Made by a program: the position numbers and the translations under genes. Positions 1 to 51,842 of a DNA stretch of 64,000 nt are shown piece by piece. The notes beneath the pieces were generated by a model, which did not search any database, had not been told where the DNA came from, and was given only the letters and a program-made list of their open reading frames with translations. The stretch is taken from assembly GCF_026626685.1 (NCBI RefSeq), contig NZ_JAPNJX010000021.1, positions 169,329 to 233,328 on the forward strand. Reading direction: 5' to 3'. The first letter of the stretch is position 1, and every line of letters starts with the position of its first letter. Source of the DNA: Nannocystis sp. SCPEA4 (lineage in GTDB: Bacteria; Myxococcota_A; Polyangia; Nannocystales; Nannocystaceae).

Positions 1-1222
1 GGGACATGGGCAAAAGTTCAGGTAGCCAGTAGCGCGTCGCCAGGGCGGCCACCAGCACCCCGATCGAGGCGAACAGCGCCACCTCGCGCAGCCCCGGGAA
101 GCTGGTCCACGCCAGCCCGGCGAAGCCCGCCACCGTCGTCAGCGCCCCGAGCAACAGGCCCGGCCAGATCCGCCGCGCGCTCTGCCGCGGCCCGTCGCGC
201 GGCGGGTCGAGCATGTGGTGGTTGAACAGGTGCACCGAGTAGTCGATGCACACCCCGATCAGCGTCGCCCCGAACGCCAGCGTCAGCCCGTGCACCGACC
301 CGAACAGCGCCAGACAGGCCGCCAGCGCCGCCGCCACGCCCGCCACCAGCGGCGCCAGCGACAGCAGCACCAGCCGCGGCGAGCGGAACATCAGCAGGAA
401 CAGCGCGACGATGCCGACCAGCGAGACGGTGGAGATCCGGCCGATGTCCGCGCGCATGCTGGTCTCGGCCGCCAGCGCGAAGCGGGCCACGCCCGACTGC
501 TCGAGCACCAGGCGCCCGCCCGACTGGGCGTCGATCTCGGCGAAGGCCGCCTCGATCGCCGCCTGCAGCGGCGCCTGATCGGCGGCGTCGAACGGCGAGC
601 TGCGGGTCGCCAGCATCACCAGCGCGTGCTGGTCCTCGGCCACGAAGTGCCCGTCGCGCAGCCCGACCCCGCCGCCCTGGGCCGCCTCGAGCCGGCGCAG
701 CTGGGCCGGATAGGCCAACAGCGGGTCGGCCGGCGCGATCTGCTTGATCACCCCCGACGTCGGCAGACCGAGCTGGCGCCGCAGCTCGCGCGCCGCGGCC
801 CGCAGCCCGTCGTCGGACAACCTGTCCTGAAGGCCACCTGTCTCGTCGGCCAGGAGGAAGAACCGCCGCGGGTAGTACAGGTTGTGGATCGCCTCGGCGT
901 GCAGCTCGCCCGGCCCGGTGCGCAGCCACGCCACCTCGGAGCGGGTCTGCAGCCGGTCGGCCAGCGCCTGCGCCCCGGCGATGGCGACGTCGGGGTCGCC
1001 GTGCTCGTCGCTGACCGACAGCACCAGCGTGCGCGTCAGCTCCGAGCTGGCCATCCCGCGCGACAGCGCCGCCAGCTTGGGGTCGGCGACGTCGGCCATG
1101 AACGCCGTGATGTCGGTGACCACCTGCAGGCGCAGCGCGCAGAACGCCGCCAGCCCGGCCACCAGCGCCGCGCCGAGCCCTGCCCGCCACGCGCTCGCCC
1201 TGTCCGATCGACCAGGTTCCAT
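1..1222 (-). CDS. MMPL/RND-superfamily exporter (ApeM-like); 3'-truncated by the window edge; ATG start at 1222
   Basis: My own minus-strand translation in the frame starting at 1222 (MEPGRSDRASAWRAGLGAALVAGLAAFCALRLQVVTDITAFMADV... then a TM bundle ISTVSLVGIVALFLLMFRSPRLVLLSLAPLVAGVAAALAACLALFG...CIDYSVHLFNHHM) stays open to position 1. A TM1 + soluble loop + TM cluster layout fits MMPL exporters. The ORF is absent from the supplied track because it runs off the edge. Track ORF 18..1190 is an Arg/Gly-rich off-frame shadow. Confidence 0.55.
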   Translation of the reverse strand, partial: MEPGRSDRASAWRAGLGAALVAGLAAFCALRLQVVTDITAFMADVADPKLAALSRGMASSELTRTLVLSVSDEHGDPDVAIAGAQALADRLQTRSEVAWLRTGPGELHAEAIHNLYYPRRFFLLADETGGLQDRLSDDGLRAAARELRRQLGLPTSGVIKQIAPADPLLAYPAQLRRLEAAQGGGVGLRDGHFVAEDQHALVMLATRSSPFDAADQAPLQAAIEAAFAEIDAQSGGRLVLEQSGVARFALAAETSMRADIGRISTVSLVGIVALFLLMFRSPRLVLLSLAPLVAGVAAALAACLALFGSVHGLTLAFGATLIGVCIDYSVHLFNHHMLDPPRDGPRQSARRIWPGLLLGALTTVAGFAGLAWTSFPGLREVALFASIGVLVAALATRYWLPELLPMS

Positions 1223-1278
1223 CAGGCAGGTCCCATCAGCCAGGTCTCGTCAGGCAGGTCCATCCGCCGGACGCCGCG

Positions 1279-2004
1279 TCAGCGGCCCGCCGGCGGCGGC
1301 GCGGCCGGCTTCGGCGGCAGGCTGAACAGCGTCGTCTGCTCCTCGGCGGTGAACTTGCGCTGCGGGTCGACGGCCGAGAACGTGGTGACCGCCTCGTCGC
1401 CGCCGATCTCGACCACGCGCATCGTCGCGATCACGATCCCCTCGCCGGCGATCTCGACCCGCTCGATCAGCTTGTCGAGCGGCGCCAGCTTCGGCTTCAG
1501 CTTCAGCGTCCAGCGCTGGCCCTCGGACTTGAGCTCCATCGCGTACATCGTCGCCAGAGCCTCGCCGTCGCCGGCGAAGATCCGGACGAACGAGTCGACG
1601 AACAGCCGCACCGCCGGGCTCTTGTCGAGCGCAATCTCCTCGCGCCCGGCGTCGTCGGCCATCCGCAGCGCCGAGCCGTCGATCACCACCACCGAGCGCG
1701 CCGGCTTGGCCGTGTGCCGGGCCAGGCGCGACTTCTTGCCGTTGGGCACGAAGTAGATCGTGCCCTCGTTGACCAGCGGCGCCGCCAGCAGGGCCATCCG
1801 CTTCTCCTCGCGGAACGCCGCCTGCAGCCCGCTCATCCCGGCGAACCGGCCGAGCAGCTGCTCGAGCGTCAACGCGGCCGGCACCGGCGCGGCGGCCACC
1901 GGCAGCGGGTCGGTCGCGCCCGCCTGGCCGATCGAGCCGGTCATGACGACCACGACCGCGAGGACATGTCCGAACGGACCTGTCCGCAGGGATAGTAGCG
2001 ACAT
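1279..2004 (-). CDS. LolA-like outer-membrane lipoprotein carrier family protein (ApeL-like); signal peptide MSLLSLRTGPFGHVLAVVVVMTGSIGQAGA; alternative start at 2037
   Basis: The ORF-track protein has a signal-peptide-like N-terminus and the LolA-like size/composition (..TIYFVPNGKKSRLARHTAK..GEALATMYAMELKSEGQRWTLKLKPK..). It sits between the thioesterase and the MMPL exporter, as in aryl-polyene clusters. Confidence 0.45.
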   Translation of the reverse strand: MSLLSLRTGPFGHVLAVVVVMTGSIGQAGATDPLPVAAAPVPAALTLEQLLGRFAGMSGLQAAFREEKRMALLAAPLVNEGTIYFVPNGKKSRLARHTAKPARSVVVIDGSALRMADDAGREEIALDKSPAVRLFVDSFVRIFAGDGEALATMYAMELKSEGQRWTLKLKPKLAPLDKLIERVEIAGEGIVIATMRVVEIGGDEAVTTFSAVDPQRKFTAEEQTTLFSLPPKPAAPPPAGR

Positions 2005-2011
2005 GAGCTGG

Positions 2012-2416: not shown

Positions 2417-3942
2417 GGCAGCGCTCCGATCGGCAGCGCGCCGGCGCGGAGCAGCCCCAGCACCGCGGCGATGTCGTGGTCCTGGCGGCGGTCGGCGTCG
2501 ACCATCGGCACCGCGGCGCGGACCGCCGCGTGGAGCGTCCGCGCGCGCGCGTGGATGTTGTGACCCGAGCGCAGGTCGACCGCCTGGCACATGGTGAGCA
2601 GCCCGATCGCGGCGACCGTCTCGGTCAGCTCGACGATCCGCAGGCAATCGCGCGCCGCGATCGTGCCCATGCTCACCTTGTCCTGGTTGTGGCATTCGGT
2701 GGAGCGGCTGAAGACGCTGGCCGGCATCGTCAGCTTCAACGCCTCGGCCGCCAGCGCCGACGCCGAGATCTGCATCGCCTTGAAGCCGTGGTGGGCCGCC
2801 CGATCGGGGCCCGTCCGCCCGACCAGGTTGGCGGGGAGGCCCGCATTCGTGTCGGGGTTGCAGACCAGCGCGATCTGGCGATCGACCAGGTCGGCCAGGT
2901 TGGCCACCGCCGTCTTCAGGGCGTCGAGCGCGAAGCAGGCGTGCCCGCCGTAGAAGTTGCCGCCGTGCAGCACCTCGCCGGTGTCCGGGTCGACCAGCGG
3001 GTTGTCGTTGGCGCCGACGATCTCGATCTCGAGCCACTGCTGCACCCAGGGTAGCGCGTCGAGAAGGACCCCGATCACGTGCGGGGCGCAGCGGATCGAG
3101 TATCGGTCCTGGATGCGCGCGGGGGCGGCCGGCCGCGGGTACTCGATATCCTCGCGGATCCACTGCGCGCAGGCCCTCTGGCCCGGATGCGGCTTGGCGG
3201 CGAAGATGCGGTCGTCGAAGTGAGCGGGGTTGCCGCCCAGGACGTCGCTGCCCATCGCCGTCAGCGCCGCGCACAGGCGCGCCAACCGCCGCGCGCGGGC
3301 GAACGCCAGGCAACCGAGCCCGACCATGACGCTGGTCCCGTTCATCAGCGCCAGGCTCTCCTTGGGCTGCAGCGTCAGCGGCGGGATCCCGGCCGCGCGC
3401 AGCGCCTCGGCTGCGGGCACCACCTGTCCCTTGAACCAGACCTCGCGCTCGCCGACCAGCGCCGCGACCACGTACGACAGCGGCGTCAGGTCGCCGCTGG
3501 CCCCGACCGAGCCCTCGGCCGGGATCCGCGGCAACAGCCGGTGCCGGAGCAGGTCGCACAGCCGCTCGAGCACCTCGATGCGCACGCCCGACCAGCCGCG
3601 CGCCAGCGCGACCAGGCGCACCGCCACCACCGCCGCGGCCTCGACCTCGTCGAGGATCCGCCCGGTGCCGCAGCCGTGGAAGCGCATCAGGTTGACCGGC
3701 ATCGCGGCCACGTGCTCGGCCGGCACCGCCGTCTCGCACGAGTCGCCGAACCCGGTCGTCACCCCGTACACCACCTCGCCCGCGGCCAGCCGGCGCGCCA
3801 GGTGATCGGCGCCGCGGGCCAGCAGCGCCCGGTAGTCCGGCGCGTCGTCGAGCGCCGGGAAAGCTGTCCCTTCGGCCAGCTCGATGACATCCCCGAGGCC
3901 GAGCCCTTGCGGGCCGACGAGCAGCACCCGCGCGCTACTCAC
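2413..3942 (-). CDS. Aromatic amino acid ammonia-lyase (HAL/TAL/PAL family, MIO cofactor)
   Basis: Shows YGVTTGFGDS, the MIO-forming Ala-Ser-Gly triad (GASGDLTPLS), and NGTSVMVGLG. Start reassigned to GTG 3942 (VSSARVLLVGPQ..), which has a GGAGG 5 nt upstream and overlaps the acyltransferase stop (GTGA). The track's first 70 aa are Arg-rich junk. Confidence 0.8.
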   Translation of the reverse strand: MSSARVLLVGPQGLGLGDVIELAEGTAFPALDDAPDYRALLARGADHLARRLAAGEVVYGVTTGFGDSCETAVPAEHVAAMPVNLMRFHGCGTGRILDEVEAAAVVAVRLVALARGWSGVRIEVLERLCDLLRHRLLPRIPAEGSVGASGDLTPLSYVVAALVGEREVWFKGQVVPAAEALRAAGIPPLTLQPKESLALMNGTSVMVGLGCLAFARARRLARLCAALTAMGSDVLGGNPAHFDDRIFAAKPHPGQRACAQWIREDIEYPRPAAPARIQDRYSIRCAPHVIGVLLDALPWVQQWLEIEIVGANDNPLVDPDTGEVLHGGNFYGGHACFALDALKTAVANLADLVDRQIALVCNPDTNAGLPANLVGRTGPDRAAHHGFKAMQISASALAAEALKLTMPASVFSRSTECHNQDKVSMGTIAARDCLRIVELTETVAAIGLLTMCQAVDLRSGHNIHARARTLHAAVRAAVPMVDADRRQDHDIAAVLGLLRAGALPIGALP

Positions 3943-4958
3943 TCCGACCTCCAGAACTCGTAGAAGTTGAACCAGTTGAGCGGCGCGAGGCGGCAGTAGT
4001 GCTCGAGGCGTTCGGCGTAGCGCTGGGCATGGGCGGCGGTGGCGGCCTCGCGGCGGCCCCTGGGCATTTCTAATTGTTCGGCGAAGGGCTCGCAATAAAG
4101 ATCGTAGCGGTCGGGCCCGTGGTACAGGCCGAAAGTCAAGTAAATCGGGCACTTTAGCAGCGCCGCGAGGGTGTACGGGCCGGTCGGGAAGCGCGCCGGG
4201 GCGCCGAGGAATTCGGCCGTGCAGGTCTTGTCGTTGACCCCGACCCGGTCGCCGAGCACCGCCACCAGCTCCCCGCGCTCGATCGCCTCCTTGGCGGTCA
4301 GGATGTAGCTCGTGTCACGCGGGTCGATCGGGATCACCCGCACGTCGAAGTCGGCCTGCACCGTGCGCAGGAAGTCGTTGATCATCTTCGCGTTCTGCCA
4401 GTACGCGAGGATGTGGATCGGGATCCGCTTGTCGACGCTGCTGGCCCGCATCGCCTCGAACGAGCCGAGGTGCGCCCCGAGCAGCAGCGCCCCCTTCCCC
4501 TCGGCCTGCAGCGCCCGCAGGTGCTCGATGCCGGTGTGGGTGATGCGGAACCGCCCGGTCTCGCCGCGGACCAGGAACACGCGGTCGAGCGCGCAGCGGG
4601 CGAACGTGTAGATGTGGCGCCAGCTGGCCCAGAACCCGTGCGGCTGGCCGATCCGCCGCAGGTAGTCCTGCGAGGCCCGCCGCGCCTTGCCGGCGAACAG
4701 CGCGTAGTAGAACGTGATCACGGCCAGCAGCACCCCGGCGCCGCGGCGGCCGAACACCCGGCAGAACAGCAGCGTCGCCCGGATCCCCAGCACCGTCCCG
4801 CGCTCGGGCCGGGTCATCCACGCCCGGTCGCCGTCGTCGGGCCTGACCGCCGGGACAGCCGACGCCGCGCTCCCGGGCCGCTCGCCCGCGCCCGCCGCGC
4901 CGCTCGCGTCGGGGATGACCGCGGGGACATGTCCCTTCGCGCCTGCCTCTTCCGCCAT
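3939..4958 (-). CDS. Lysophospholipid/lipid-A-type acyltransferase (ApeD-like); alternative start ATG 4817 (MTRPERG..)
   Basis: HtrB/LPLAT-like sequence (..FYYALFAGKARRASQDYLRRIG..GALLLGAHLGSFE..). The first 47 aa are Ala/Gly low complexity, so the true start may be 4817. Confidence 0.6.
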   Translation of the reverse strand: MAEEAGAKGHVPAVIPDASGAAGAGERPGSAASAVPAVRPDDGDRAWMTRPERGTVLGIRATLLFCRVFGRRGAGVLLAVITFYYALFAGKARRASQDYLRRIGQPHGFWASWRHIYTFARCALDRVFLVRGETGRFRITHTGIEHLRALQAEGKGALLLGAHLGSFEAMRASSVDKRIPIHILAYWQNAKMINDFLRTVQADFDVRVIPIDPRDTSYILTAKEAIERGELVAVLGDRVGVNDKTCTAEFLGAPARFPTGPYTLAALLKCPIYLTFGLYHGPDRYDLYCEPFAEQLEMPRGRREAATAAHAQRYAERLEHYCRLAPLNWFNFYEFWRSE

Positions 4959-4982
4959 GGCCGATCGAACCAGTCCTCTCGC

Positions 4983-5759
4983 TCAGCGGCTGGCCGGCAG
5001 CGCCGGGCGCCGCAGGCGGCGGTAGAGGTTGATCCACGGCCGCACCATCACCCGCTGGAACGACAGCCGGGTGTGCAGCCACGAGATCTTGAGGTTGTCG
5101 CCGAACACGCGGAAGTGCGACACCCCGCCCTCGTCGCGGCCGATGTAGCGGACCTTCGTCGGCAGGTTGATCACCGGCACCCCGGCCCACACCAGGCGCA
5201 CCGCCACCTCGATGTCGAAGTCCATGCGGTCGCCGGTGCGCCCGAGCGCCAGCGCGGGGTCCAGCGGGTAGACCCGGAAGCCGCACATCGGATCGGTGAT
5301 GACCCCGCGGCCGGCCTCGAAGTCGGTCCAGAACAGCGTGATCTTGCGGGCGACCAGCCGGCCCTTCGGCGCCGACGCGTCGTACACCGGCGCCCCGAGG
5401 ATCAGCGCGTCCGGCCGCTCGCGCGCGGTCGCCAGGAATTTCGGGATGTCCCCGAGGTCATGTTGCCCGTCGGCGTCGACCTGCAGCGCGTGGGTGTAGC
5501 CGAGCTCGCGCGCGAACTGGAACCCGGTCTTGACCGCCGCCCCCTTGCCGCCGTTTTGCGCCCGCCGGCGCACGTGCGCCAGCCCCTCGGCCCCCAGCGC
5601 CGCGACCGCCTGTCGCCCCGCCTCGCCGCTGCCGTCGTCGATCACGACCACGTCGGGCAGGTGCGCCTTGACCCGCAGCACCACGTCGCGGACCGTCCGC
5701 GGGTTGTCGTAGGTCGGGATCAGCGCGCACGGCCGGAACGCGCCTGTCCCGGCGAACAT
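4983..5759 (-). CDS. Family-2 glycosyltransferase; start at MFAGTGAF (5759); track ORF extends to GTG 5816
   Basis: CALIPTYDNPRTV...VVVIDDGSGE...QVDADGQHD (DxD) ...GFRVYPL are GT2 signatures. GAAGGGG lies 8 nt upstream of the 5759 ATG. The N-terminal extension in the track is made of the repeated GGACATGTCC element. Confidence 0.7.
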   Translation of the reverse strand: MFAGTGAFRPCALIPTYDNPRTVRDVVLRVKAHLPDVVVIDDGSGEAGRQAVAALGAEGLAHVRRRAQNGGKGAAVKTGFQFARELGYTHALQVDADGQHDLGDIPKFLATARERPDALILGAPVYDASAPKGRLVARKITLFWTDFEAGRGVITDPMCGFRVYPLDPALALGRTGDRMDFDIEVAVRLVWAGVPVINLPTKVRYIGRDEGGVSHFRVFGDNLKISWLHTRLSFQRVMVRPWINLYRRLRRPALPASR

Positions 5760-5808
5760 CTCAGCTGCCCCTTCGGACATCTCGTTTTCACCTGTCCCTG
5801 CGGACATG

Positions 5809-7656
5809 TCAGCCACCGTGCGCCTCGTACTCGAGCGCCCCGGCGGTGACCACCTCGCCCGCGCGCGCCAGCGAGAAGCGGACGCTCGTGCCCCGCACCT
5901 CGAGCCGCAGCACCAGCGCGTCGCCCGGCGCGATCGGCCGGGTGAACTTGAGCCGCGCCGCCTGCCGCAGCCGCCCCAGCTCGGGCCGCAGCGCCGCCAC
6001 CTGCGGCACCACCAGGGCCGTCAGCTGCGCCACCCCGGGCAGCACCGGCGCGCCGTCGAAGTGCCCGCGGAAGAACGCCAGGTCGACCGGCACCCCGACC
6101 TCGACCTCGTGCACCGCCGTGTCGCCCGCGTCGCGCCGCACGTGCCCGCGCAGCTCGAACCCGATCGCAGCTTGGCCCGCCGAGTCTCGCGCAGCTCCGT
6201 GGCCAGCACGCGGCCCATCGCGCCTGGTCGCCGTCGGCTCGGATCCGCCGCGCCCTGCGTCATCCGGCTCCTCCGCCGTCAGCCCGAGCAGCGCGTGCAG
6301 GCGCCGCTTCGTCAGCTTGCCGTTGGGCTCGCGCGGCAGCGCGGGCACCACCTTGATCCGCCGCGGCACCACCACCGGGTCGAACCACGGGAGCAGCCCC
6401 CGCCGCAGCTCGGCCACCAGCTCGCTGGCGTCGCGACCCGAGTCGCGGGCCACCACCGCGGCCATCAATTCGTGCCCGCGGGCGCCAGGCGTCTCGATCG
6501 CCACCACCGCCGCGTCGGCCACCGCCGGCAACGCCAGCAGCCGCTGCTCGACCTCCGCCACGGCCACCCGCTTGCCGGCGACCTTCACCACCCCGTCGAG
6601 CCGCCCGCGCAGGTGAAACCCGCCGCGCGCGTCGAGCTCGACCCGATCCTCGCAGGGGTACGGCGACGGCGCGTCGGGGGCCAGGAACGGCGAGCGCAGC
6701 AGCAGCCGCCCCTCGGCCGCGACCTCGACCGCGACCCCCGGCAGCGGCGTCCAGGCTGGCTCCGGGGACATGTCCCCTAAAACCTGTTCGTGCCGCCGCC
6801 AGCCGATCCCGCCGGTCTCCGACGAGCCGTACACCTCGGTCACCGCCAGCCCGAGCTGGGCCAGCAGCTCGTCGGCGGTCGCCCGCGGCAGCGGCGCGCC
6901 CGACGAGAACACCCGCCGCAGCGGCGGCAGGTCGCCGCGCTGCAGCACCGTCAGCCCGCGCAGGTGCGCCGGCGTGCTGATCAGCACCGTCGCCCCGACC
7001 TCGCGCGCCGCCCTCGCCACCGTCTCGGCGTGCAGCGGCGTCTCGCGGGCGAACGCCGCCCCCGCGGCCAGCGGCGCCAGCACCCCGAACAGCAGCCCGT
7101 AGAGGTGGTACGGCGGCACCGTCGCCAGCGCCACCTCGCCGGCCGCCAGCGCGAACGTGGCCGCCAGCGCCTGCGCCTCGCCGAGCAATTGCCCGGCCGT
7201 CTTGGCGCACGGCTGGTGGTCGCCGGTGCTGCCCGAGGTGTACACGACCGCCAGCCGCCGGTCCGCCGGCAGCGCTTCGGGCCATGTCGGATCGACCATG
7301 TCCCCAGGGGCATGTCCGGACAGCCAGTCGCGGACGTCCTGGGCGTCGGCCAGATCGGAGTCGTGGATCAGCGCCACCACGTCGGCGCGCCCCGCCAGCT
7401 CGCGCACCGCCGCCGGCTGGGCGTTCGGCGGCAGCGCGACCGCGTGGCCGCGCAGCCACGCGCCCAGGGCCGTGACCGCCAGGTGATAGCGGTCGCCGCA
7501 GACCACCAGCACCTCGCTGCCGGGCCGCGCCGGCGGCAGGCGCTCGGCGACGAGGCTCGCGTCGCGCATCAGTTCGCCCGCGCTGCGCGGGCCGGCCTCG
7601 CCGACGGCGACGCGCGCCGCGGGATCGGTGTGGACGAGCGGGACGAAGGACCTCAT
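5809..7656 (-). CDS. AMP-dependent synthetase/ligase fused in frame to a FabA/FabZ-like hotdog dehydratase (ApeH-ApeI-like)
   Basis: AMP-binding motifs VVYTSGSTGDHQPCAKT, YGSSETGG, PNGKLTKRRL. After a ~40-aa linker comes the dehydratase motif AFFRGHFDGAPVLPGV. Start ATG 7656 overlaps the upstream stop (ATGA). The first 200 aa of the 815-aa track ORF are a shadow of the upstream membrane-protein gene. Confidence 0.7.
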   Translation of the reverse strand: MRSFVPLVHTDPAARVAVGEAGPRSAGELMRDASLVAERLPPARPGSEVLVVCGDRYHLAVTALGAWLRGHAVALPPNAQPAAVRELAGRADVVALIHDSDLADAQDVRDWLSGHAPGDMVDPTWPEALPADRRLAVVYTSGSTGDHQPCAKTAGQLLGEAQALAATFALAAGEVALATVPPYHLYGLLFGVLAPLAAGAAFARETPLHAETVARAAREVGATVLISTPAHLRGLTVLQRGDLPPLRRVFSSGAPLPRATADELLAQLGLAVTEVYGSSETGGIGWRRHEQVLGDMSPEPAWTPLPGVAVEVAAEGRLLLRSPFLAPDAPSPYPCEDRVELDARGGFHLRGRLDGVVKVAGKRVAVAEVEQRLLALPAVADAAVVAIETPGARGHELMAAVVARDSGRDASELVAELRRGLLPWFDPVVVPRRIKVVPALPREPNGKLTKRRLHALLGLTAEEPDDAGRGGSEPTATRRDGPRAGHGAARDSAGQAAIGFELRGHVRRDAGDTAVHEVEVGVPVDLAFFRGHFDGAPVLPGVAQLTALVVPQVAALRPELGRLRQAARLKFTRPIAPGDALVLRLEVRGTSVRFSLARAGEVVTAGALEYEAHGG

Positions 7657-8306
7657 GCGCGGAGCAGACGGCGGAGCAAGCGGTCGGGCAACGCGTCGCC
7701 GAACCGGCGGAAGGTCGCCTTGCGGACGATGTACTCGACGGTGAACATTACCCCGATCAGCAGGTACGCCAAAAGTCCGGTGTACAGCGTCCACCAGGCC
7801 ACCGGGGCCCACAGCGCGAGCGCGGCGCTGACGGCCGCGTTGGCGACGAAGAACCCGCACCAGACCACCGTGACCTTGCGACAGTAGGCCGGCCCGCCGG
7901 GCGGCAGCTCGGGCTCCTGCAGCCGCGCGAACCGCTCGACCAGCGACACCGGCCCGCGCAGGCTGGCCGCGAAGTTGGCCAGAAGCCCGAGGTTGACCAG
8001 CACCGGCAGGGCCATGAACAGCCGCTGCTCGCCCGACAGCGCCGCCGCCGCGAACAGCCCGAGGAGCGACAGCGGCACCCGCAGCACCGGCCACAGGTCC
8101 TCGCGCCGGGCCTCGCGCAGGCGCAGCACGAGCCCCGGCAGCAGCGCGCAGGCGAGCACCAGCGCCAGCGTGCGCGGGCTCCAGCGCGTCATCCCGAGGT
8201 ACACCACCAGCGGGTAGCCGCCGACCAGCAGCGAACGGAACACCGCCGGGAGCCACCTCGGGACCCCCGCGGCCCGCTGCGGCTTGCCGTCAGGGTCCGC
8301 CATCAC
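7653..8306 (-). CDS. Integral membrane protein of unknown function (polytopic)
   Basis: 217 aa with five or more hydrophobic segments. It is coupled to the ligase gene by an ATGA overlap. Confidence 0.5.
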   Translation of the reverse strand: MMADPDGKPQRAAGVPRWLPAVFRSLLVGGYPLVVYLGMTRWSPRTLALVLACALLPGLVLRLREARREDLWPVLRVPLSLLGLFAAAALSGEQRLFMALPVLVNLGLLANFAASLRGPVSLVERFARLQEPELPPGGPAYCRKVTVVWCGFFVANAAVSAALALWAPVAWWTLYTGLLAYLLIGVMFTVEYIVRKATFRRFGDALPDRLLRRLLRA

Positions 8307-8319
8307 GGCCGCCTTTTTC

Positions 8320-8610
8320 TCAGCTGGCCGCCGCGGCCGCCCGTTGCTCGGCGACGAAGCGGGCCAGGTTGGTCACGCTGGCGAAGATGTGCCGGTTCTG
8401 CGCGTCGTCGGCCTTGGTCTTGACCCCGTACTTCTTGCCGATCGCCATCGCCAGCTCGAGCACGTCGATCGAGTCGAGGCCCAGCCCCTCGACCAGCAGC
8501 GGCGCCTCGGGGTCGATGTCCTCGGGGGTCATGTCCTGCAGCATCAGGGCCTCGATGATGAGCTCCTTGATCTCGCGGACCAGCGCGTCGGGCGGGGCGG
8601 CATCTGTCAT
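8320..8610 (-). CDS. Acyl carrier protein
   Basis: MTDAAPPDALVREIKELIIEALMLQDMTPEDIDPEAPLLVEGLGLDSIDVLELAMAIGKKYGV carries the phosphopantetheine-attachment DSI/L motif. Start moved to the internal ATG at 8610, giving a 96-aa ACP. Confidence 0.7.
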   Translation of the reverse strand: MTDAAPPDALVREIKELIIEALMLQDMTPEDIDPEAPLLVEGLGLDSIDVLELAMAIGKKYGVKTKADDAQNRHIFASVTNLARFVAEQRAAAAAS

Positions 8611-8782
8611 GGGGTCGGCGCATCCTACGGGGATCGCCCGGGACACGACAAGCCTCGCCCTTCCCCCTCCGTGGACACCCGAGCGCCGCGTGCTTTGCCC
8701 CACCGACACGGCGCAAGCTCACATCTTCGGGCTGGCTCTTGGTGCAGGCGGCTCCGGCGGCCTCTCGTACGCTCGCCGCCCC

Positions 8783-9562
8783 ATGACAAGCACCAATTCA
8801 CCGCGGATCGCCATCGTCACCGGCGGCGGCAACGGCATCGGCCGCGCCACCGCCCGCATGCTCGCCGACGCCGGCTACGCCGTCGCCGTGTGGGACCTGG
8901 CCGAACAGGCAGCCGAGGAGGTCGTGTCCGCGATCACCGCCGCCGGCGGCGTCGCCATCGCCCGCAAGGTCGACGTCACCAAGCCCGAGGACTGCGTCGC
9001 CGCGGCCGCCGCCGTGGTCGAGCGGTTCGGCCGCATCGACGTCCTCATCAACAACGCCGGGGTCGTCCGCGACGGCCAGCTGGTCAAGGTCAAGGACGGA
9101 CAGGTGGTCGGCCAGATGAGCGCCGAGCAGTTCCAGTTCGTCCTCGATGTCTGCCTCAAGGGCGTGTTCAACTGCACCCAGGCGGTCGTGCCGACCATGA
9201 TCGCCCAGAAGTACGGCCGCATCATCAGCACCAGCTCGGTCGTCGCCCTCTACGGCAACTTCGGCCAGACCAACTACGTCGCCGCCAAGGCCGGCGTGAT
9301 CGGCATGACGCGCGTATGGGCGCGCGAGCTCGGCCGTTACGGCATCACCGCCAACGTCGTCGCCCCGGGTTTCATCTCGACCGACATGGTCAAGAGCATC
9401 CCCGAGAAGGTGCTGCAGTCGATGATCGAGCACACCCCGGTCGGGCGCGCGGGTCAGCCCGACGACATCGCTCGCGCCTACCTCTTCCTCGCGGACGAGA
9501 AGTCGAGCTTCATCACCGGCGCCACTTTGAGCGTCGACGGCGGCTCGGTCCTCGGCACCTGA
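8783..9562 (+). CDS. fabG: 3-oxoacyl-ACP reductase (SDR family, FabG-like)
   Basis: RIAIVTGGGNGIGRATA (TGxxxGxG), NNAG, catalytic Y..K (YVAAKAGV), and PG motif (VAPGFISTDM). Start at the in-frame ATG 8783. It is divergent from the ACP gene. Confidence 0.8.
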   Translation: MTSTNSPRIAIVTGGGNGIGRATARMLADAGYAVAVWDLAEQAAEEVVSAITAAGGVAIARKVDVTKPEDCVAAAAAVVERFGRIDVLINNAGVVRDGQLVKVKDGQVVGQMSAEQFQFVLDVCLKGVFNCTQAVVPTMIAQKYGRIISTSSVVALYGNFGQTNYVAAKAGVIGMTRVWARELGRYGITANVVAPGFISTDMVKSIPEKVLQSMIEHTPVGRAGQPDDIARAYLFLADEKSSFITGATLSVDGGSVLGT

Positions 9563-9663
9563 GCCGCAGCACGCGGTTCAGGTCCGATTGCGTGGGCGGC
9601 GAACAGCGTCCTCACGGCGCGCGCGGCGCTGAACAGCCTCCGCCACGGCAGGCCCTCACCCTG

Positions 9664-9697
9664 CCCGCGCGGACCTCGGGCCGCGCGCGGCATTTTG
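9664..9697 (+). terminator. GC-rich hairpin (CCGCGCGG palindromes) followed by CATTTTG, downstream of fabG
   Basis: cccgcgcggacctcgggccgcgcgcgg then cattttg, located 100 nt after the fabG stop. It is the only T-tract terminator-like structure I saw. Confidence 0.3.
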
Positions 9698-9742
9698 CCC
9701 CTTCGTTGCAGCAGCAGCGCGAAAAGCCTACCGTAACGGGCG

Positions 9743-11527: not shown

Positions 11528-11864
11528 TCCAAAGCGGTGCAGATCCGTGTGGCCCGCGCCACACGGCGACCCGCCGCGCTTGAACCCCGGTCAACAGCGC
11601 GAACCCGCCCCGCGCTTGGCCCAGTTACTGAATGTAGTTCGAGACGGCGACGACGACCGGGCGAGGTTCCGGCGATCGATGCGAGATCCCCAGCTCGTGG
11701 ACACTCGACCGGAGCTGGCGCGAACGACATGTCCATGCGGACATATGTCCACGGGCAGTTCCGCCCCCGGGGCCCGCTGTTCATGGCTGTCTCTTGCGAC
11801 ATGTCCACTCGGACATTCCCGAGCTCCGCCGCGGACACCAACCTCGGCCGCCGGAGCGACTCGC

Positions 11865-12464: not shown

Positions 12465-12520
12465 CACGGGCGACTGAAGCACGACCGCCCCGCCGGCGAC
12501 AAGCGCGCTACAGTCCGCGC

Positions 12521-12736: not shown

Positions 12737-12820
12737 GGCCATGCTCTGAAGGACACATCCGTCCCGTCTGACGCGCCAGGTCATGCCCTTCAGAACATGT
12801 CCTTGAGACCATGTTGCGAC
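12737..12820 (+). repeat. Array of six 14-bp phased units (G-R-M-CATG-TCC + 4 nt); CATG at 12740, (12756 degenerate), 12782, 12796, 12810
   Basis: Counted directly: ggcCATGctctgaa / ggacaCATCcgtcc / .. / ggtCATGcccttca / gaaCATGtccttga / gacCATGttgcgac. The array also contains the inverted repeats CTGAAGG/CCTTCAG. Confidence 0.5.
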
Positions 12821-12857
12821 GACTGACAACCCCGACTCCGCGTGCGACACTCGGCCC

Positions 12858-13283: not shown

Positions 13284-13364
13284 GCCGCAGTGGGCGTGAG
13301 CACATGTCCTTTCGGACATGACACGCTCTGGCCCACGCGAGCACCGCGGCGCCGCTCGTGCGGC

Positions 13365-16073
13365 TCACTTGCGCCGCTTCGCCCGCACCACGCAGCGCGC
13401 CGCGACCTGCGGGCGGAACAGCGTGCGGGCCAGCGTCCACACCGCCTCGGCGGTGACCGCCCGGACCCGCTGCGGGTAGGCGAACGCGCGCGCCCGCGGC
13501 AGCCCGTACACCTCCGACAGCGCCAGCAGCGACGCCATCCGGCTGCGGCGCTGCTGCCCGAGCTCGAACTGGCCGACCAGCCACGCCTGCGCGCGCGCCA
13601 CCTCGGCCGGCGACGGCGGCTCCCGCACCGCGCGCTCGACCTCCGCCGCGATCGCGGCCAGCGCCTTCGGCAGCTTGTCCTGGCTGGTCGACGCGTGGAT
13701 CGCCACGTGGCCGGCGTCGACGCCCTCGACGCTCGACATCGACACCTCGTACACCAGCCCCTGGACCTCGCGCAGCGCCGTGAACAGCCGCCCCGTCTGG
13801 CCCCCGAGCACCGCGCTGAGCACGTCGAGCGCCGGCTCGCGCTCGTCGCCGACGGCGATCCCCGGCCAGCCGAGGGCGATGTGGGCCTGCTCGCGGTCCT
13901 GGAAGATCTCGCGCTCGCGCGGCCCTCGCGGCGCCTGCACCGGCTTCGCCTTGCCTGGCCCTTCAGGCATCCTGTCCCAAAGGCCAGCCTCGCGCAGCGC
14001 CGCCTCGACCTGGGCCGCCGCCGCCGCGACGTCGACGTCGCCCGCCAGCGCCAGCACCGCCTGCCCGATCGGGTAGTCGCGCCGCCACAGCGCCTTCAAT
14101 TTGGCCGGCGTCAGCGCCCGCAGCCCCTCGGGCGTGCCGCGGACCGGGCGGCTGAACGGATGCTCGCCGTACAGGAGCTTGTGCAGCCCGCGGGACGCCA
14201 CCTGGCCCGGGTCGTCGACCTCGGCCGCCAGATCCTGCAGGGCCACGCGCCGCTCCTCGTCGAGCTCGTCGGCCGCGAACGTCGGCGTGATCGTGCAGTC
14301 GAGCGCGTGCCCGAGCACCGCCGGGAAGTGCCGCGCCAGGCACTCGAAGTGCAGCCCGAGGCTGTTGCGGCCGGCGAACCCGTCGAGCCCCGCCGCCATG
14401 CCGTCGATCGCCCGGCTCAGCGCCTCGCCGCCCGTGCGCGCGTTGCCGCGGGTGAGCAGGGCCGCGGCCACCGAATTCGAGCCGGCCAGCGCGGCCGACT
14501 CGCGCCGCTGTCCCCCGGGCCAGATCAGCCAACCCGCCGCCACCGGCACCGCCGGCTCGACCCGCGCCAGCAGCCGCAGCCCGTTCGGCAGCGTCAGCGT
14601 GTCGATCCCGTCGGGCGCCCGCTTCGGCGCCGGTCCGCCGCGCCGCGGCCCCTCCGCCGGCTTCAGCGCGGCGTCGACGGCGGTCTTGACGGACCTGGCC
14701 TTGGCGACATCCACCTCGGCGCGCGGCAGCTCGAGGCTGACGCACGCGTGCGCCGGATCGAGCCAGCGCGCGCAGGCCGAGCGGACCGCCTCCGGCGTCA
14801 ACGCGGCCAGGGCCGCGTAGTACTCGCGCTCGCGCGCCAGGTCGCCGAAGATCGTGGCGCACGCACCCAGCGCGTGCGCCTGGCCCTGCACCGTCTCGCG
14901 CCGGTACACCAGGTCGCTCTCGAGGATCGCCTTGGCCCGCGCCAGCTCCTCGGGCGACACCGACGCCGCCGCCAGCCGCCGCACCTGGGTCAGCACCGCC
15001 GTCACCGCCGCGGCCGCCTGGGCCGCGGTCGTGCGCGCCGACACCAGCAGGGACCCGCCGAGCCGCAGCGTGTCGCAGTGGGCCTGGATGTCCGAAACGA
15101 CCTGTTCTTTGCGCCGTGTCTCGGCGACCAGGCGCGACGACTCGCCGTTGCCGAGCACCACCGCCGCGGCGTCGATCGCCGCCGCGTCGGCCGCTCCGGC
15201 CGCGGGCGCCGGCCAGGCCAGCAGCACGTAGGCCTCCTGGACCTCGGCGCGCTTCACCGTCACCCCGGGCCGCGGCGCCGGCTCACCCGTCGGCCGCCGG
15301 GCCGGCGCGGCCGGCAGCGCTCCGACGGTCGCCCGCGCCACCTTGCGCAGCGCCGCCACGTCGACCGCGCCGACGGCCACCAGCGTCAGCCGCTCGCCCG
15401 CGTAGGCCCGGCGGTGATAGGCCCGCAGCCGCGTCGCCGTGTGGCCGGCGACCTCGGCCTCGAGCCCCAGCACCGGCCGCGCGTACGCGTGCGTCCCGTA
15501 CACCCGCTCGAGCGCCGCCTGCGTCACCCGCTGGCCCGGGTCGTCGTCGTACTGCTTGATCTCCTCGATCACCACCTCGCGCTCCTGCGCCAGCGTGGTC
15601 GGGTCGAGCGTCGGGTGCAGCGTCGCCGCGGCGATCAGCGCCGCCGCCTCGGCCGCCCGCGCCGCCGGGGCCGTCACGTGCACCACCGTCTCGTCGTGGC
15701 TGGTGAACGCGTTGATGTCGCCGCCGAGCGCCTCGATCGCCCCCGCGAGGTCGAGCGCCGGCTCGGCCCGCCGCACCCCGGCCTTCGCCAGGCGCGCGCG
15801 GATGCTCTTCGGGCCATGTCCCAGAGCACATGGCTTGAAGAGCATGTGCTCGAGCAGGTGGGCGCAGCCGTGCTCGTCCGGGCGCTCGGCCGCGGTCCCC
15901 GACCCCACCCACAGCTGGATCGCCGCCGGTCCGGCGCCGGCCGGGCGCGCCGGCAGGATCAGCAGGCGGGCGCCGTTGGCCAGGCGCTCGTCGATGAGCG
16001 AGGCGAATTCGGAGGCGGCACCCGGAAGATCGAGGCCGCGGGGCGAGGGAGGCGAGACGGGCAGATCGGGCAC
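13365..16073 (-). CDS. M16 (pitrilysin/insulinase) family zinc peptidase, two tandem M16 units
   Basis: The HxxEH zinc motif is in GCAHLLEHMLFKP. The 902 aa contain a second inactive-type M16 half (..GSNSVAAALLTRGNARTGGE..). Confidence 0.8.
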   Translation of the reverse strand: MPDLPVSPPSPRGLDLPGAASEFASLIDERLANGARLLILPARPAGAGPAAIQLWVGSGTAAERPDEHGCAHLLEHMLFKPCALGHGPKSIRARLAKAGVRRAEPALDLAGAIEALGGDINAFTSHDETVVHVTAPAARAAEAAALIAAATLHPTLDPTTLAQEREVVIEEIKQYDDDPGQRVTQAALERVYGTHAYARPVLGLEAEVAGHTATRLRAYHRRAYAGERLTLVAVGAVDVAALRKVARATVGALPAAPARRPTGEPAPRPGVTVKRAEVQEAYVLLAWPAPAAGAADAAAIDAAAVVLGNGESSRLVAETRRKEQVVSDIQAHCDTLRLGGSLLVSARTTAAQAAAAVTAVLTQVRRLAAASVSPEELARAKAILESDLVYRRETVQGQAHALGACATIFGDLAREREYYAALAALTPEAVRSACARWLDPAHACVSLELPRAEVDVAKARSVKTAVDAALKPAEGPRRGGPAPKRAPDGIDTLTLPNGLRLLARVEPAVPVAAGWLIWPGGQRRESAALAGSNSVAAALLTRGNARTGGEALSRAIDGMAAGLDGFAGRNSLGLHFECLARHFPAVLGHALDCTITPTFAADELDEERRVALQDLAAEVDDPGQVASRGLHKLLYGEHPFSRPVRGTPEGLRALTPAKLKALWRRDYPIGQAVLALAGDVDVAAAAAQVEAALREAGLWDRMPEGPGKAKPVQAPRGPREREIFQDREQAHIALGWPGIAVGDEREPALDVLSAVLGGQTGRLFTALREVQGLVYEVSMSSVEGVDAGHVAIHASTSQDKLPKALAAIAAEVERAVREPPSPAEVARAQAWLVGQFELGQQRRSRMASLLALSEVYGLPRARAFAYPQRVRAVTAEAVWTLARTLFRPQVAARCVVRAKRRK

Positions 16074-16640: not shown

Positions 16641-16754
16641 TGGCCGGTCGCTCGCGTCCTCTCGCGCGCCCGCCATCGCGGGCCTCGCCGGCCTGCGCGC
16701 CCGCGCCCGCGCCCCATCCGGCCCGGGGCCGATTTTCTGCGGTATCGTCCCGCC

Positions 16755-18548
16755 GTGCTCTCCCCGACTCTCGCGTTGCGCTGCCCACATTGCCAGCACG
16801 CGCTCGGGCTCGCCGACATCCGCGGTGCCGCCACCTGCCCGGCCTGCGGTCAGGATCACGGTCTGCCGCCGGCCGTCGCCGACGCGCTCGCCCTGTACGA
16901 GCGGGCCATCCAGCAGGCCGTCAGCGATCTGGTCCGCAGCGCACCTGTCCCAACAGTCAGCCCGGAGCCCGACCCCGATCCCGCGGAAATCGCGCCGGCC
17001 CAGACCCGAGCCTACGCGCCCAGCGAGCCGGGCCCCTCGGCCAGACTGCTCGGCGCGCCGGTCCATCCCACCACCCTGCTGGCGATCGGCCCCGCCCCCG
17101 CGCCGCCCGCCCCCGGTCCCGCGAATCCTGTCCCCAAGGACAGCTACGAGCCGATGCCGGGCGAGACCATGCGCGCGCCGGTCCCCGCCAGGCCCGGCCC
17201 CGCCACCCTGTCGGGCCAGCTCGCCGCCCGCCCGCCGGTCCCCGGGCACAAGCCCGGCTCGCTCGCGGCCGAGCTGGCCGCCGGCCTCGCCGCCGAGGGC
17301 CTCGCCGCCGAGCCGGCCCCGGCCAGCGTGTTCGCCCACCTCTCGCCGCCCGCCGACCCACCTGTCCCTGCGGACAGCCACCCGTCGCCTGTCCCTGCGG
17401 CCAGCCTCGAACGCCCTGTCCCTGCGGCCAGCCCACATGTCCCTGCGGACATGTCCCCCGACGTCCCGCTCCTGCCGGCCTTCGACCCGGCGGCCCTGTC
17501 CGGCCCGCTGCCGGCCCCGCAACCACCTGCCCTTTCGACCAGCCCCGTCGGCGCCGGCGACACCATCCCCGGCACCGGCCCCTCGAACTCCTCGCTGCTG
17601 GCGATCCTCTACAACCGCTCCGGCGCCAGCCTGAGCACCCCCTCGTCGACGGCAGGCCTGGCCGCCCCGCCCGGCGGGCTGGCCGAGGCGCCGCTGCTGG
17701 TCACCGCCGTGCGCGATCCGGCCGACGGTCCACCTGTCCGATCGACCAGCGAGCTCGTCGCCGCCGTCCGCTCCTTCCTCCCCGATCGGCCCGACGCCGC
17801 CGAGCCCGAGCCCGAGGGCCGGATCCCCGCCAGCGCCCTCGCCGTGGCCCGCCGGGCCCTCCTGGCCCGCCACGCCGACGAGCGCCGCCAGCAGCAGGTC
17901 CGCGACGGCGGCTCCGGCCTGCTGCTCGCCGCCGTCGTCTGCCTCGTCCTCGTCGCGTTCGGCCTGTGGTACGTCGCCGCCCCGATCGCCGTGCTCGCCG
18001 TCCTCCTCCGCCTGCGCCGGGAGGAGCGCGGCGAGCGGTTCGGCGCCGAGGTCCAGCGCCTCGGCGAGGCCCTCGGCGGCCAGCGCCTGCCCAGCTACGA
18101 CGCCATCGCCGCGTGGTTCGACGGCCTGTGGCCCGCCCCCGTCAGCCCCGAGGCGATGTGGACCAGCCACCTGCACGGGGCCGTCCGCTGCCACGTCCAC
18201 GGCTACGCCGCCCTGGTCGACGTCCACCTGAACGAAAAGACAGCCGGCGGCGTCGTCTACCCGCCGCGGATCACCGCCTACCTGGCGGCGATCTGGCCCG
18301 GCCGCGTGCCGACGCTGCGCCCGTCCGCCACCGACCTCTCGCCGGAGGCCCAGGCCCGCCTCACGCGCCTGCGCAAGGCCGGCTACACCGTCGTCGCCGA
18401 CGGTCACGGCGGCCTCATCATGCGCGCCAGCGAGTCGATCGCCCAGGCCGCGCGGGCCGACATCACCCGCCTGCCCGCGCTGCAGGTCCCGATCGGCGAG
18501 CTCGCCGACCTCGCCCGCGATCTCGGCGCCGAGCCGGTCGTCCCGTAG
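16755..18548 (+). CDS. Zn-ribbon (CPHC..CPAC) / Pro-rich linker / single-TM / C-terminal domain protein of unknown function
   Basis: The N-terminus carries a CxxC-x17-CxxC pattern. A ~300-aa Pro/Ala-rich region has PVPAD/PVPAAS repeats encoded by CCTGTCCCTGCGGACAG-type DNA repeats. The TM helix is LLLAAVVCLVLVAFGLWYVAAPIAVLAVLL. Confidence 0.6.
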   Translation: MLSPTLALRCPHCQHALGLADIRGAATCPACGQDHGLPPAVADALALYERAIQQAVSDLVRSAPVPTVSPEPDPDPAEIAPAQTRAYAPSEPGPSARLLGAPVHPTTLLAIGPAPAPPAPGPANPVPKDSYEPMPGETMRAPVPARPGPATLSGQLAARPPVPGHKPGSLAAELAAGLAAEGLAAEPAPASVFAHLSPPADPPVPADSHPSPVPAASLERPVPAASPHVPADMSPDVPLLPAFDPAALSGPLPAPQPPALSTSPVGAGDTIPGTGPSNSSLLAILYNRSGASLSTPSSTAGLAAPPGGLAEAPLLVTAVRDPADGPPVRSTSELVAAVRSFLPDRPDAAEPEPEGRIPASALAVARRALLARHADERRQQQVRDGGSGLLLAAVVCLVLVAFGLWYVAAPIAVLAVLLRLRREERGERFGAEVQRLGEALGGQRLPSYDAIAAWFDGLWPAPVSPEAMWTSHLHGAVRCHVHGYAALVDVHLNEKTAGGVVYPPRITAYLAAIWPGRVPTLRPSATDLSPEAQARLTRLRKAGYTVVADGHGGLIMRASESIAQAARADITRLPALQVPIGELADLARDLGAEPVVP

Positions 18549-45685: not shown

Positions 45686-45727
45686 GAACATGTGCTGAAA
45701 GACATGTTTTCAGAGACATGCCAGTGC
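45686..45727 (+). repeat. Three 14-bp phased CATG units (CATG at 45689, 45703, 45717) with hairpin CTGAAAGACATGTTTTCAG
   Basis: gaaCATGtgctgaa / agaCATGttttcag / agaCATGccagtgc, counted directly. It is intergenic, upstream of the 45321 gene. Confidence 0.45.
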
Positions 45728-51630: not shown

Positions 51631-51842
51631 GTTCGCCGCGATCTTATCCGGACCGCCGCGGCCTCGCCAGCCGGTCTCGCCGAATCTTCACCCGCATCCC
51701 CTGCGCGCGATCATGACTCATGCCCCAAAGGACATGTGGATGATTGATGGCAGCGACTTGTCGCGCGGGGGTCTCGTGCTAATCCGACGATCGATCGCTC
51801 TCGCGTAGCCACTGACGATTCCCTCCGCACATTGTCCCGCCC

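Follow-up and report, generated by a model that had tools for sequence, protein, structure and literature searches.

A tandem 14-bp palindromic repeat at gene 3' ends in Nannocystis, with retained copies inside coding sequence

The 64,000-nucleotide stretch of the Nannocystis sp. SCPEA4 genome analysed here (the window) contains two minus-strand genes in which the tetranucleotide CATG recurs three times at intervals of exactly 14 bp. One gene (5809-7656) encodes a 615-residue protein that Pfam resolves into an acyl-CoA ligase fused to an ApeI/FabA-like dehydratase, and it lies in an aryl-polyene-like cluster; the other (13365-16073) encodes a 902-residue M16 peptidase (Pfam). The ligase array (ggcCATGtcggatcgacCATGtccccaggggCATGtccggac, 7280-7321) has its CATGs at 7283, 7297 and 7311; over 7283..7314 the sense strand reads GGACATG CCCCTGGGGA CATG GTCGATCCGA CATG GCCCGAAG and is translated, at about residues 114-125, as G-H-A-P-G-D-M-V-D-P-T-W. 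The M16 array (15801..15846) has its CATGs at 15815, 15829 and 15843, with a fourth, degenerate unit (GATG, 15801) in phase with them. Both triples read exactly as claimed in the original prediction, whose translations (..SGHAPGDMVDPTWPE.. for the ligase, ..LEHMLFKPCALGHGP.. for the peptidase) are right, as is its statement that each triple occupies three different codon phases: GGA-CAT-G, GAC-ATG and ACA-TGG in the ligase, and CAC-ATG, CCA-TGT and GGA-CAT-G in the M16 gene. The CATGs rotate through the three phases because 14 is not a multiple of 3, and an amino-acid repeat is thereby ruled out as the cause of these two arrays. Copies that all share one frame, as an amino-acid repeat demands, are found only among the PVPxDS copies of a Pro-rich open reading frame (ORF) and the DMSAGTG copies of the ligase linker, both described below.

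Four instances of CATG-N10-CATG-N10-CATG are present in the window (7283, 12782, 15815 and 45689), whereas 100 dinucleotide-preserving shuffles produced none. The window has 197 CATGs, between which the spacing 14 is found 11 times and the spacing 28 five times, with 0-4 occurrences for each other spacing up to 100. The naive expectation for triples, 197 x (197/64000)^2, is about 0.002 for the window, close to the earlier estimate of 0.001 per 64 kb. Shuffling of synonymous codons within each called gene, which had been set beforehand as a test on which the claim could fail, leaves phased triples rare: across 39 called genes the shuffles gave on average 0.78 CATG-14-CATG pairs (maximum 4) and 0.004 triples, against five pairs and two triples in the real sequence, and none of 1000 shuffles attained five pairs. 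For single genes, a triple arose in 28 of 20000 shuffles of the ligase (0.14%) and in 44 of 20000 of the M16 gene (0.22%). The genes were called by a simple codon-usage caller trained on this window, which missed one Pro-rich gene.

The two coding triples are real, are set at the nucleotide level and are retained between species. Using the M16 protein to scan genomes, we collected the orthologous locus, together with the 10 kb to its left and right, from six Nannocystis species (N. radixulma, N. bainbridge, N. punicea, N. sp. RBIL2, N. exedens and N. pusilla; loci L001-L006) and from more distant Nannocystaceae; the six Nannocystis loci all cover one chromosomal neighbourhood, equivalent to 3-26 kb of the window. 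The M16 triple is kept in all six species (locus position 10228) and the ligase triple in all five whose locus includes the ligase (L001, L003-L006), with the phasing preserved at synonymous sites. In N. pusilla Na p29 the M16 orthologue (10001-12615 of L006) is split into two gene calls, 10001-10813 and 10810-12615, by a frameshift or an assembly error.

The codons that write the arrays are rare in their families (CCA 2%, ACA 3%, GGA 6%, TGT 9%, CAT 16%), and they persist. The M16 gene of the window has 36 A/T-ending codons; five of them are identical in all orthologues, and four of these five are array codons (hypergeometric p = 8e-5), with CCA, TGT, GGA and CAT kept in all orthologues. In the ligase, four of the six universally identical A/T-ending codons likewise belong to the array (hypergeometric p = 4e-4). 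Over both arrays, none of the 24 CATG positions varies, as against 13 of the 40 spacer positions (Fisher p = 0.001). The first ligase spacer differs in nearly every species (CCCCTG, TTTTGA, TTTCAG, TTTTGG, TTTTAA), amino acids included, with seven of its ten positions variable and the CATGs on either side invariant. In metagenome homologues of the ligase at 66-70% identity, two CATGs are still spaced by 14 bp at this site, and which two they are differs from homologue to homologue. The M16 triple had been placed across the conserved HxxEH motif, and one CATG does lie there: that at 15843 is CAC-ATG, the His-Met of HxxEHM, and is ancestral, occurring also in outgroups without the repeat. The next two instead open an insertion of about 18 residues found only in Nannocystis (FKP-CALGHGPKSIRARLAKAGVRRAEPAL-DLAG), where outgroups have about 8 residues. 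In a divergent metagenome-assembled genome (MAG), at L007, phased CATGs of the M16 gene fall at offsets 0, 28 and 42 and encode another peptide.

These results leave chance, or a side effect of codon usage or dinucleotide composition, as an exceedingly improbable explanation. The one point in its favour is that CAC-ATG is an ordinary codon pair shared with outgroups; no dinucleotide shuffle gave a triple, no codon shuffle reached five pairs, and the excess recurs in six other genomes and at orthologous positions. The central claim of the original prediction, that the triples reflect a signal in the DNA and not chance, codon bias or an amino-acid repeat, thus withstood both tests on which it could have failed.

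Printed in 14-bp register, the arrays resolve into copies of a 14-bp palindrome, TGTCC-N4-GGACA, whose head-to-tail copies read GGACA/TGTCC at each junction and so carry a CATG every 14 bp. As the unit starts with TG and ends with CA, its tandem duplication within constant flanks, C-(TGTCC N4 GGACA)n-G, writes a CATG at every junction, 14 bp apart. Lone units are mostly flanked by C...G, and arrays frequently have GCTG or CCTG at their left edge and CAGG or CAGC at their right, as expected from tandem duplication of the 14-mer inside C...G flanks. The 14-bp phasing that first drew attention to CATG is therefore real, but CATG itself is a by-product, the junction of abutting palindromes. Many units have no CATG at all (C-TGTCC...GGACA-G, or a CAGG variant), others do not abut and are variably spaced, and beyond the core the units share only a loose consensus, for example a GAAG loop. 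The window has 25 occurrences of TGTCC-N4-GGACA with at most one mismatch, where shuffles give 1.7. Perfect copies number 82 in 200 kb of Nannocystis DNA, where this is the top 5-N4-5 palindrome (the runner-up has 34), and GGACATGTCC, with 26 copies in the same 200 kb, is the joint commonest 10-bp palindrome despite its four A/T. Arrays of identical units reach 17 units in N. pusilla and 8 in metagenome contigs; judged from their sequence, such runs show ongoing amplification. A search of the whole window against Rfam 15 gave no matches at the gathering threshold.

The family is specific to Nannocystis and close relatives. The six Nannocystis species have 7-17 CATG-14-CATG pairs per 22 kb, where 0.2-0.3 are expected. 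Divergent Nannocystis MAG loci (M16 identity 50-74%) hold at most a trace, namely two pairs in L007, one in L017, one perfect unit in L022 and nothing in L021, and no pairs were found in 13 more distant loci from Nannocystaceae, Polyangia and other Myxococcales (L008-L016, L018-L020, L023). We also considered another word with a 14-bp period in other Nannocystaceae and found none; ATCGC at 14 bp in L015 forms isolated pairs and no arrays. A metagenome scan with the pattern CATG-N7-GGACATG-N7-GGACATG, which means that the contigs were selected by the pattern itself, matched at least 120 stretches; those listed include at least 51 different contigs, of 66-77% GC, in which true 14-bp arrays number 2-11 units. 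Matches of low GC content are unrelated, being 7-bp microsatellites, (GGGACAT)n, and other satellites; in six low- to mid-GC contigs (L039, L057, L058, L126, L130 and L142) runs of (GGGACAT/CATGTCC)n fit the pattern trivially and share the GGACATG word. A phage origin was discarded, as viral contigs gave three matches, all of them unrelated tandem duplications of 51-56% GC. The repeat is apparently undescribed: we found neither it nor any paper on a Nannocystis repeat or palindrome in the searchable literature, the coverage of which is incomplete, and the occurrences of GGACATGTCC among the literature matches listed are coincidental (a eukaryotic p53 half-site or other human/mouse contexts).

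The original prediction treated the arrays as a phenomenon of coding sequence. This part did not stand, since coding DNA is the poorest class for the family and its home is the DNA immediately after stop codons. In the Nannocystis loci the density of perfect units per kb is 6.4 in convergent spacers, 0.39 in tandem spacers, 1.0 in divergent spacers and 0.17 in coding sequence, and all 13 divergent matches fall in the Pro-rich gene missed by the caller, which brings the true divergent density to about zero. The metagenome contigs, which provide independent genomic contexts, agree, with 2.3 perfect units per kb in convergent, 0.88 in tandem and 0.08 in divergent spacers and 0.06 in coding sequence; for arrays the corresponding densities are 2.8, 0.92, 0.58 and 0.013. 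In these contigs an array typically starts 2-25 nt past the stop codon, and between many convergent pairs the whole spacer is array. Of the 25 convergent spacers in the Nannocystis loci, 17 contain a unit or pair. Orthologous spacers always have the array, with unit number and sequence differing. Relative to transcription the orientation is neutral (262 vs 215 matches in 28 independent metagenome arrays); an orientation bias in the Nannocystis loci rested on about three independent spacers and was gone in the metagenome set. The family is not strictly extragenic, as 29 of the 82 perfect units lie inside ORFs, and more do when the missed Pro-rich gene is counted.

The coding copies are confined, as far as alignments and a structural model indicate, to places that tolerate insertion: loops, linkers and the M16 insertion. 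The ligase array lies between the conserved motifs DLRPWL and ATVYTSG, where both length and sequence vary across 60 homologues. An AlphaFold model of the ligase built on 48 homologues has a mean predicted local distance difference test score (pLDDT) of 87, and three of its four weakest segments are sites of the element: residues 111-120 (pLDDT 70) and 291-300 (61), both in coil, and the linker at 463-495 (below 50). The fourth, residues 141-150 (pLDDT 67), is without the element. The site at 291-300 corresponds to a second minus-strand copy (6755..6796), in which phased GCTG, CATG (6769) and CCTG surround GGGGACATGTCCCC and encode ..EQVLGDMSPEP.. at about residues 288-300; at this site two CATGs are intact in N. 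punicea and N. exedens. In the linker, which aligns to about 6170-6270 of the window, the peptide RDMSAGTG (GGGACATGTCCGCGGGGACAGG) is present in 0-3 copies depending on the species, with none in the window and N. radixulma and three in N. exedens, each copy on a block of about 17-20 residues. This range indicates that copy number shifts on the timescale of speciation, and that expansion within the ORF would have taken place by tandem duplication. The signal had been described as superimposed on protein-coding constraint, but in neither gene is that constraint strong: past its first CATG the M16 array opens an insertion, and the ligase copy falls in a hypervariable loop modelled with low confidence.

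The Pro-rich ORF (16755-18548, plus strand), which has no Pfam match, differs in that its copies keep one frame. The motif P-V-P-x-D-S/M recurs in it 3-7 times per species, each time encoded by a perfect TGTCC-N4-GGACA with the rare proline codon CCT, at spacings of 21-54 bp that are always a multiple of 3 and not 14. In the window the units span 17129..17453, perfect at 17129, 17363 and 17438 and with one mismatch at 17390 and 17417, and a plus-strand CATG pair (17436/17450) lies in the same segment.

Arrays in convergent spacers fold as long hairpins or hairpin pairs, with z-scores of -4.2 to -8.5 and none of 200 shuffles as stable. Between the convergent genes that flank 13290..13335 of the window, a hairpin with the core CATGTCC-TTTC-GGACATG (CATG at 13303 and 13317) has a predicted RNA fold of -24.7 kcal/mol (z = -4.74, 0/200 shuffles as stable), and its stem runs on into site-specific flanks. 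The sole array folded on both strands, in metagenome contig L123, gave z = -7.15 and -5.36; at 7684-7754 of that contig the convergent stop codons (TGA ... TCA) pair at the base of the stem and the spacer consists of the repeat only. In other metagenome convergent spacers the array reaches within a few bases of both stops. Hairpin-plus-T-run terminators in 1-20000 of the window number 3 against 3.7 expected, with none at an array and no T-run 3' of the arrays. A search for sigma-70-like promoters over the same interval gave no matches, and hence none at arrays.

Further copies lie elsewhere in the window. A plus-strand intergenic array (12740..12813) lies between the gene for a 71-residue helix-turn-helix (HTH)-like protein (12521-12736) and that for a 141-residue protein (12858-13283), with CATG at 12740, 12782, 12796 and 12810 in a single 14-bp register; this spacer holds an array in every species, variable in unit number and sequence. 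The HTH-looking ORF ends ...GARALGLREATLRDLL..., and in all Nannocystis species its stop codon is followed directly by GGACA(T/G)G or GGCCATG, the array lying in the downstream spacer. Three units (5745, 5766 and 5793, within 5745..5808) precede the GT2 gene or lie at its start, at spacings other than 14 bp, the nearest of them 2 nt from the ligase stop. GGACATGTCC followed by two units (1965..1994) occupies the spacer after the stop of the minus-strand gene 2012-2416, and two perfect units (11730 and 11802) with partial units (11728..11815) lie in the convergent spacer 11528-11864. Directly past the stop codon of a LolA-like gene, a row of 3.5 copies of CAGGTCCCATCAGG with a 14-bp period (1213..1261) has CAGG in place of CATG; its TCC/GG positions are those of the CATG arrays, it has no dyad symmetry, and it may be a decayed or variant array. 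The minus-strand genes of the aryl-polyene or flexirubin-like cluster at 1-9000, with repeat units in several short intergenic spacers, include those for an MMPL protein, the LolA-like protein, a thioesterase-sized ORF, an aromatic amino-acid lyase, a lipid A-type acyltransferase, the GT2 protein, the ligase-dehydratase fusion and an acyl carrier protein. The 681-bp divergent spacer that separates the M16 gene from the Pro-rich ORF contains a 70-bp tandem repeat (16410-16582; 2.5 copies, 93% match, Tandem Repeats Finder score 295), overlapped by a row with a 53-bp period (16353-16475) and unrelated in sequence to the 14-bp family.

From 18 to 64 kb the window is nearly free of the element. It has no perfect units there, and only two plus-strand intergenic arrays: the triple GAACATG / AGACATG / AGACATG at 45689..45720, whose RNA folds have z = -1.7 and -1.1 on the two strands, and a CATG pair at 51719..51736, between a GNAT gene (51193-51630, minus strand) and a HlyD-like gene (51843-52985, plus strand). 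The genes of this part encode a multicopper oxidase, a 5756-residue nonribosomal peptide synthetase (21547-38817), ABC exporters and a JmjC protein, as well as C39-peptidase ABC transporters with HlyD and a set of radical-SAM and MbnB/TglH-like proteins for a ribosomally synthesized and post-translationally modified peptide (59.6-63.7 kb). The scarcity of the element may mean that these are recently acquired islands.

We favour, at somewhat better than even confidence, the interpretation that the family is a modular palindromic repeat of gene 3' ends akin to repetitive extragenic palindromic (REP) sequences and bacterial interspersed mosaic elements (BIMEs), probably a bidirectional terminator or a hairpin that protects 3' ends, with rare copies in loops and linkers. 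The phased CATG triples would then be gene-embedded copies of this Nannocystis family. The 14-bp TG...CA module would duplicate in tandem inside its constant flanks, and arrays would grow and shrink by slippage or unequal exchange. After stop codons, chiefly between convergent genes, the hairpin of the array would act as a bidirectional terminator or 3'-end protector, as in enterobacterial REP/BIME. Copies would occasionally arise in, or be captured by, parts of genes that tolerate insertion (surface loops, interdomain linkers, disordered Pro-rich segments) and be translated as short flexible peptides (DMSAGTG, GHVLxDM, PVPxDS). Like REP/BIME, the repeat is a short imperfect palindrome with very many copies in one lineage, it occupies the 3' ends of genes, the spacers of convergent pairs and the interior of operons, and it avoids promoter regions; the arrays of convergent spacers form stem-loops.

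Several observations weigh against this interpretation. The function at 3' ends is one that we infer only from placement and folding. Folding is unremarkable in both of the flagged coding arrays (ligase z = +0.94, M16 z = -1.9), as it is in several arrays between same-direction genes (z = -0.5 to -1.7), and the 17-unit N. pusilla array (CATGCGCGCGAGGA) keeps GGACATG and has lost the TCC arm. Mismatches in imperfect units are mostly not wobble-compatible, and those compatible with G.U pairing number 46 on the sense vs 65 on the antisense strand in coding sequence and 19 vs 29 in same-direction spacers. This absence of a sense-strand G.U bias fits recognition of a double-stranded DNA sequence at least as well as it fits an RNA hairpin. 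With ordinary folds and no such bias, a hairpin in the sense transcript is unsupported as a conserved feature of the coding copies; and because the flagged coding arrays fold in no unusual way, structure cannot be what preserves them. Their lost hairpin potential hints at sequence-specific recognition. Our best guess, since the coding copies keep the GGACATG core but not the hairpin, is that they are preserved through recognition of that core by a factor that reads the family.

The same points lend weight to the view that the arrays are double-stranded operators, which we regard as a real if minority possibility. A dimeric protein, nucleoid-associated or acting as a transcription roadblock at gene ends, would bind each 5-N4-5 palindrome in the 14-bp register; hairpin potential would come incidentally with the dyad symmetry, and copies within genes would be retained as binding sites. 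The 5-N4-5 geometry is that of FNR-type sites, the exact register and the GGACATG core are conserved while the bases between cores are free, and cores but not hairpin potential are kept in the coding arrays as well as in the long array of N. pusilla; the orientation neutrality and the lack of a sense-strand G.U bias are also as expected of such sites. By analogy only, CdbA, a nucleoid protein in M. xanthus whose type is ribbon-helix-helix (RHH), binds short GC-rich repeats at more than 500 sites (PMC7156744). As the reader of this family CdbA itself was rejected, its motif being a GC-rich direct repeat separated by 4 bp with no link to TGTCC-N4-GGACA. Operators would be expected to concentrate at promoters, yet arrays are nearly missing from divergent, promoter-only spacers, the poorest intergenic class. 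In addition, complementarity extends beyond the units into site-specific sequence (GAGTGA...TCACTC in L004, GTGGGC...GCCCAC in the window), which a hairpin needs and an operator does not; we identified no candidate protein, and some units do not abut and are variably spaced. Further ideas were dropped. Mini-ORFs (ATG-NNN-TGA) or arrays of Shine-Dalgarno sequence plus start were considered because many units read GGGAC-ATG-NNN-TGA, but the loops are mostly without TGA and the arrays fill convergent spacers in neutral orientation; CsrA-type GGA arrays and Rho rut sites are a poor match for arrays that are neutral in orientation and whose dyad symmetry leaves no strand asymmetry.

It is improbable that the repeat is a purely selfish or neutral palindrome, similar to a minisatellite, that multiplies by duplication and builds up wherever the harm is smallest. 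The coding copies would then be neutral relics, conserved because the species have diverged little and because an ORF cannot take 14-bp indels. Copy number and sequence turn over fast in the intergenic arrays and in the ligase linker, runs of identical units imply recent amplification, the part of the window with biosynthetic gene clusters nearly lacks the element, and codons differ between species at only about 16% of the sites with identical amino acids. Against this, rare A/T-ending codons otherwise disappear fast, as 31 of the 32 M16 ones outside the array are not common to all species, whereas all four array codons are kept; in the ligase the CATGs never vary next to a spacer that changes even its amino acids, two phased CATGs persist in the 66-70%-identity homologues, and the arrays stay at the same spacers in all species despite their turnover in sequence. 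Selection on the protein, with HVLxDM and DMSAGTG as functional peptides, is hardly credible as the force that keeps the coding CATGs. It would account for the recurrence of D-M or E-D-M at the ligase site in distant homologues, for the similar peptides, GHVLRDMADPTW and EHVLGDMSPEPAW, at the two ligase sites and for the single frame of PVPxDS in the Pro-rich ORF; it leaves the choice of rare synonymous codons unexplained and is at odds with the scarcity of triples in codon shuffles that preserve the protein, with the different frames in which the motif is read in the ligase and M16 genes, with its greatest abundance in non-coding DNA, and with the phased CATGs that L007 keeps in a different peptide. 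The last explanation that we weighed, and a very improbable one, is that the arrays are clusters of CATG methylation sites, either an epigenetic signal for a methyl-sensitive protein or tied to restriction-modification. CATG is a methyltransferase target in other bacteria, SeqA reads clustered GATC, and CATG is the most invariant part of the arrays. Against this, CATG is little enriched or depleted in the window overall (197 vs about 165 expected from base composition), and there are the many units without it.

Classical hairpin-plus-U terminators are largely missing from high-GC bacteria, myxobacteria among them, and how genes end there is poorly understood; Nannocystis genomes, at 10-13 Mb, are mined for natural products. 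In this setting the array is a concrete candidate for 3'-end formation in Nannocystis, as it occupies most convergent spacers, begins a few bases past the stops and folds very stably. The coding copies suggest that such modules can be absorbed into proteins as loop or linker peptides and then held at the nucleotide level against strong pressure on GC content at third codon positions, which would make the family a natural case of synonymous-site selection and of the birth of linker sequence. Practical uses could include the annotation of operon ends, the separation of real from spurious ORFs in Nannocystis and the design of expression constructs. A bolder proposal, which we put forward tentatively and think unlikely on present evidence, is a dedicated Nannocystis recognition system: a protein would read GGACATG cores in strict 14-bp register and mark or enforce gene ends, and the ligase and M16 copies would be selected internal sites and not relics. 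Three units span about four helical turns, and internal sites might serve attenuation, processing or protein binding. If this were the case, the recognition protein could also drive the propagation of the module, which would then be the smallest self-propagating repeat module known.

Among described elements that resemble the Nannocystis family in part, Neisseria DNA uptake sequences (DUS) and Haemophilus uptake signal sequences (USS) are similar in having about one copy per kb, in being lineage-specific and in placing coding copies in less constrained parts of proteins, and their intergenic inverted pairs double as terminators. However, they are non-palindromic words for the competence machinery and form no tandem arrays, and nothing here bears on DNA uptake. 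The met-boxes of MetJ, a repressor of the RHH type, are likewise short palindromes that adjoin one another in a fixed register, 2-5 or more at a time, but they measure 8 bp and serve a known repressor at the promoters of one regulon, whereas the Nannocystis arrays avoid promoter-only spacers and occur in many contexts. HIP1 of cyanobacteria (GCGATCGC) is, like GGACATGTCC here, an over-represented short perfect palindrome that occurs in several frames of coding sequence and is retained in orthologues. HIP1 is not known to be phased into arrays, nor to be strongly enriched between genes or at their 3' ends; for the Nannocystis element the density outside genes is 9 to 40 times that inside them.

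The coding copies find their closest parallel in Rickettsia palindromic elements (RPE), which insert in frame at sites in genes that the fold tolerates, are translated and persist across species. The same holds for the in-frame copies at tolerant sites described here, in the M16 insertion of about 18 residues and at the pLDDT minima of the ligase in its variable loop and linker. RPEs differ in measuring 100-150 bp with similarity across the family over their whole length, in not being tandem 14-bp modules and in not concentrating at gene 3' ends. For the extragenic copies the likeness is with REP/BIME/REPIN, which are short imperfect palindromes in very many copies, clustered, hairpin-forming and lineage-specific in sequence; REP/BIME also lie after stops, between convergent genes and between genes of operons, and avoid promoter-only spacers. 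REPs come with the RAYT tyrosine transposase and have a conserved 5' tetranucleotide (GTAG-like) by a longer stem. No GTAG-like tetranucleotide was noticed here without an aimed search, and there is no transposase among the genes of the 64-kb window, no search in the genomes having been aimed at RAYT. The Nannocystis module has 14 bp where a REP has about 20-40; its copies adjoin one another head to tail at a period of exactly 14 bp, where those of REPs switch orientation and are joined by variable linkers; and about one third of the perfect copies in the Nannocystis loci are coding, which is unusual for REPs. The family thus differs from REP/BIME, RPE and HIP1 in its tiny 14-bp module, its strict head-to-tail register and its sizeable coding minority.

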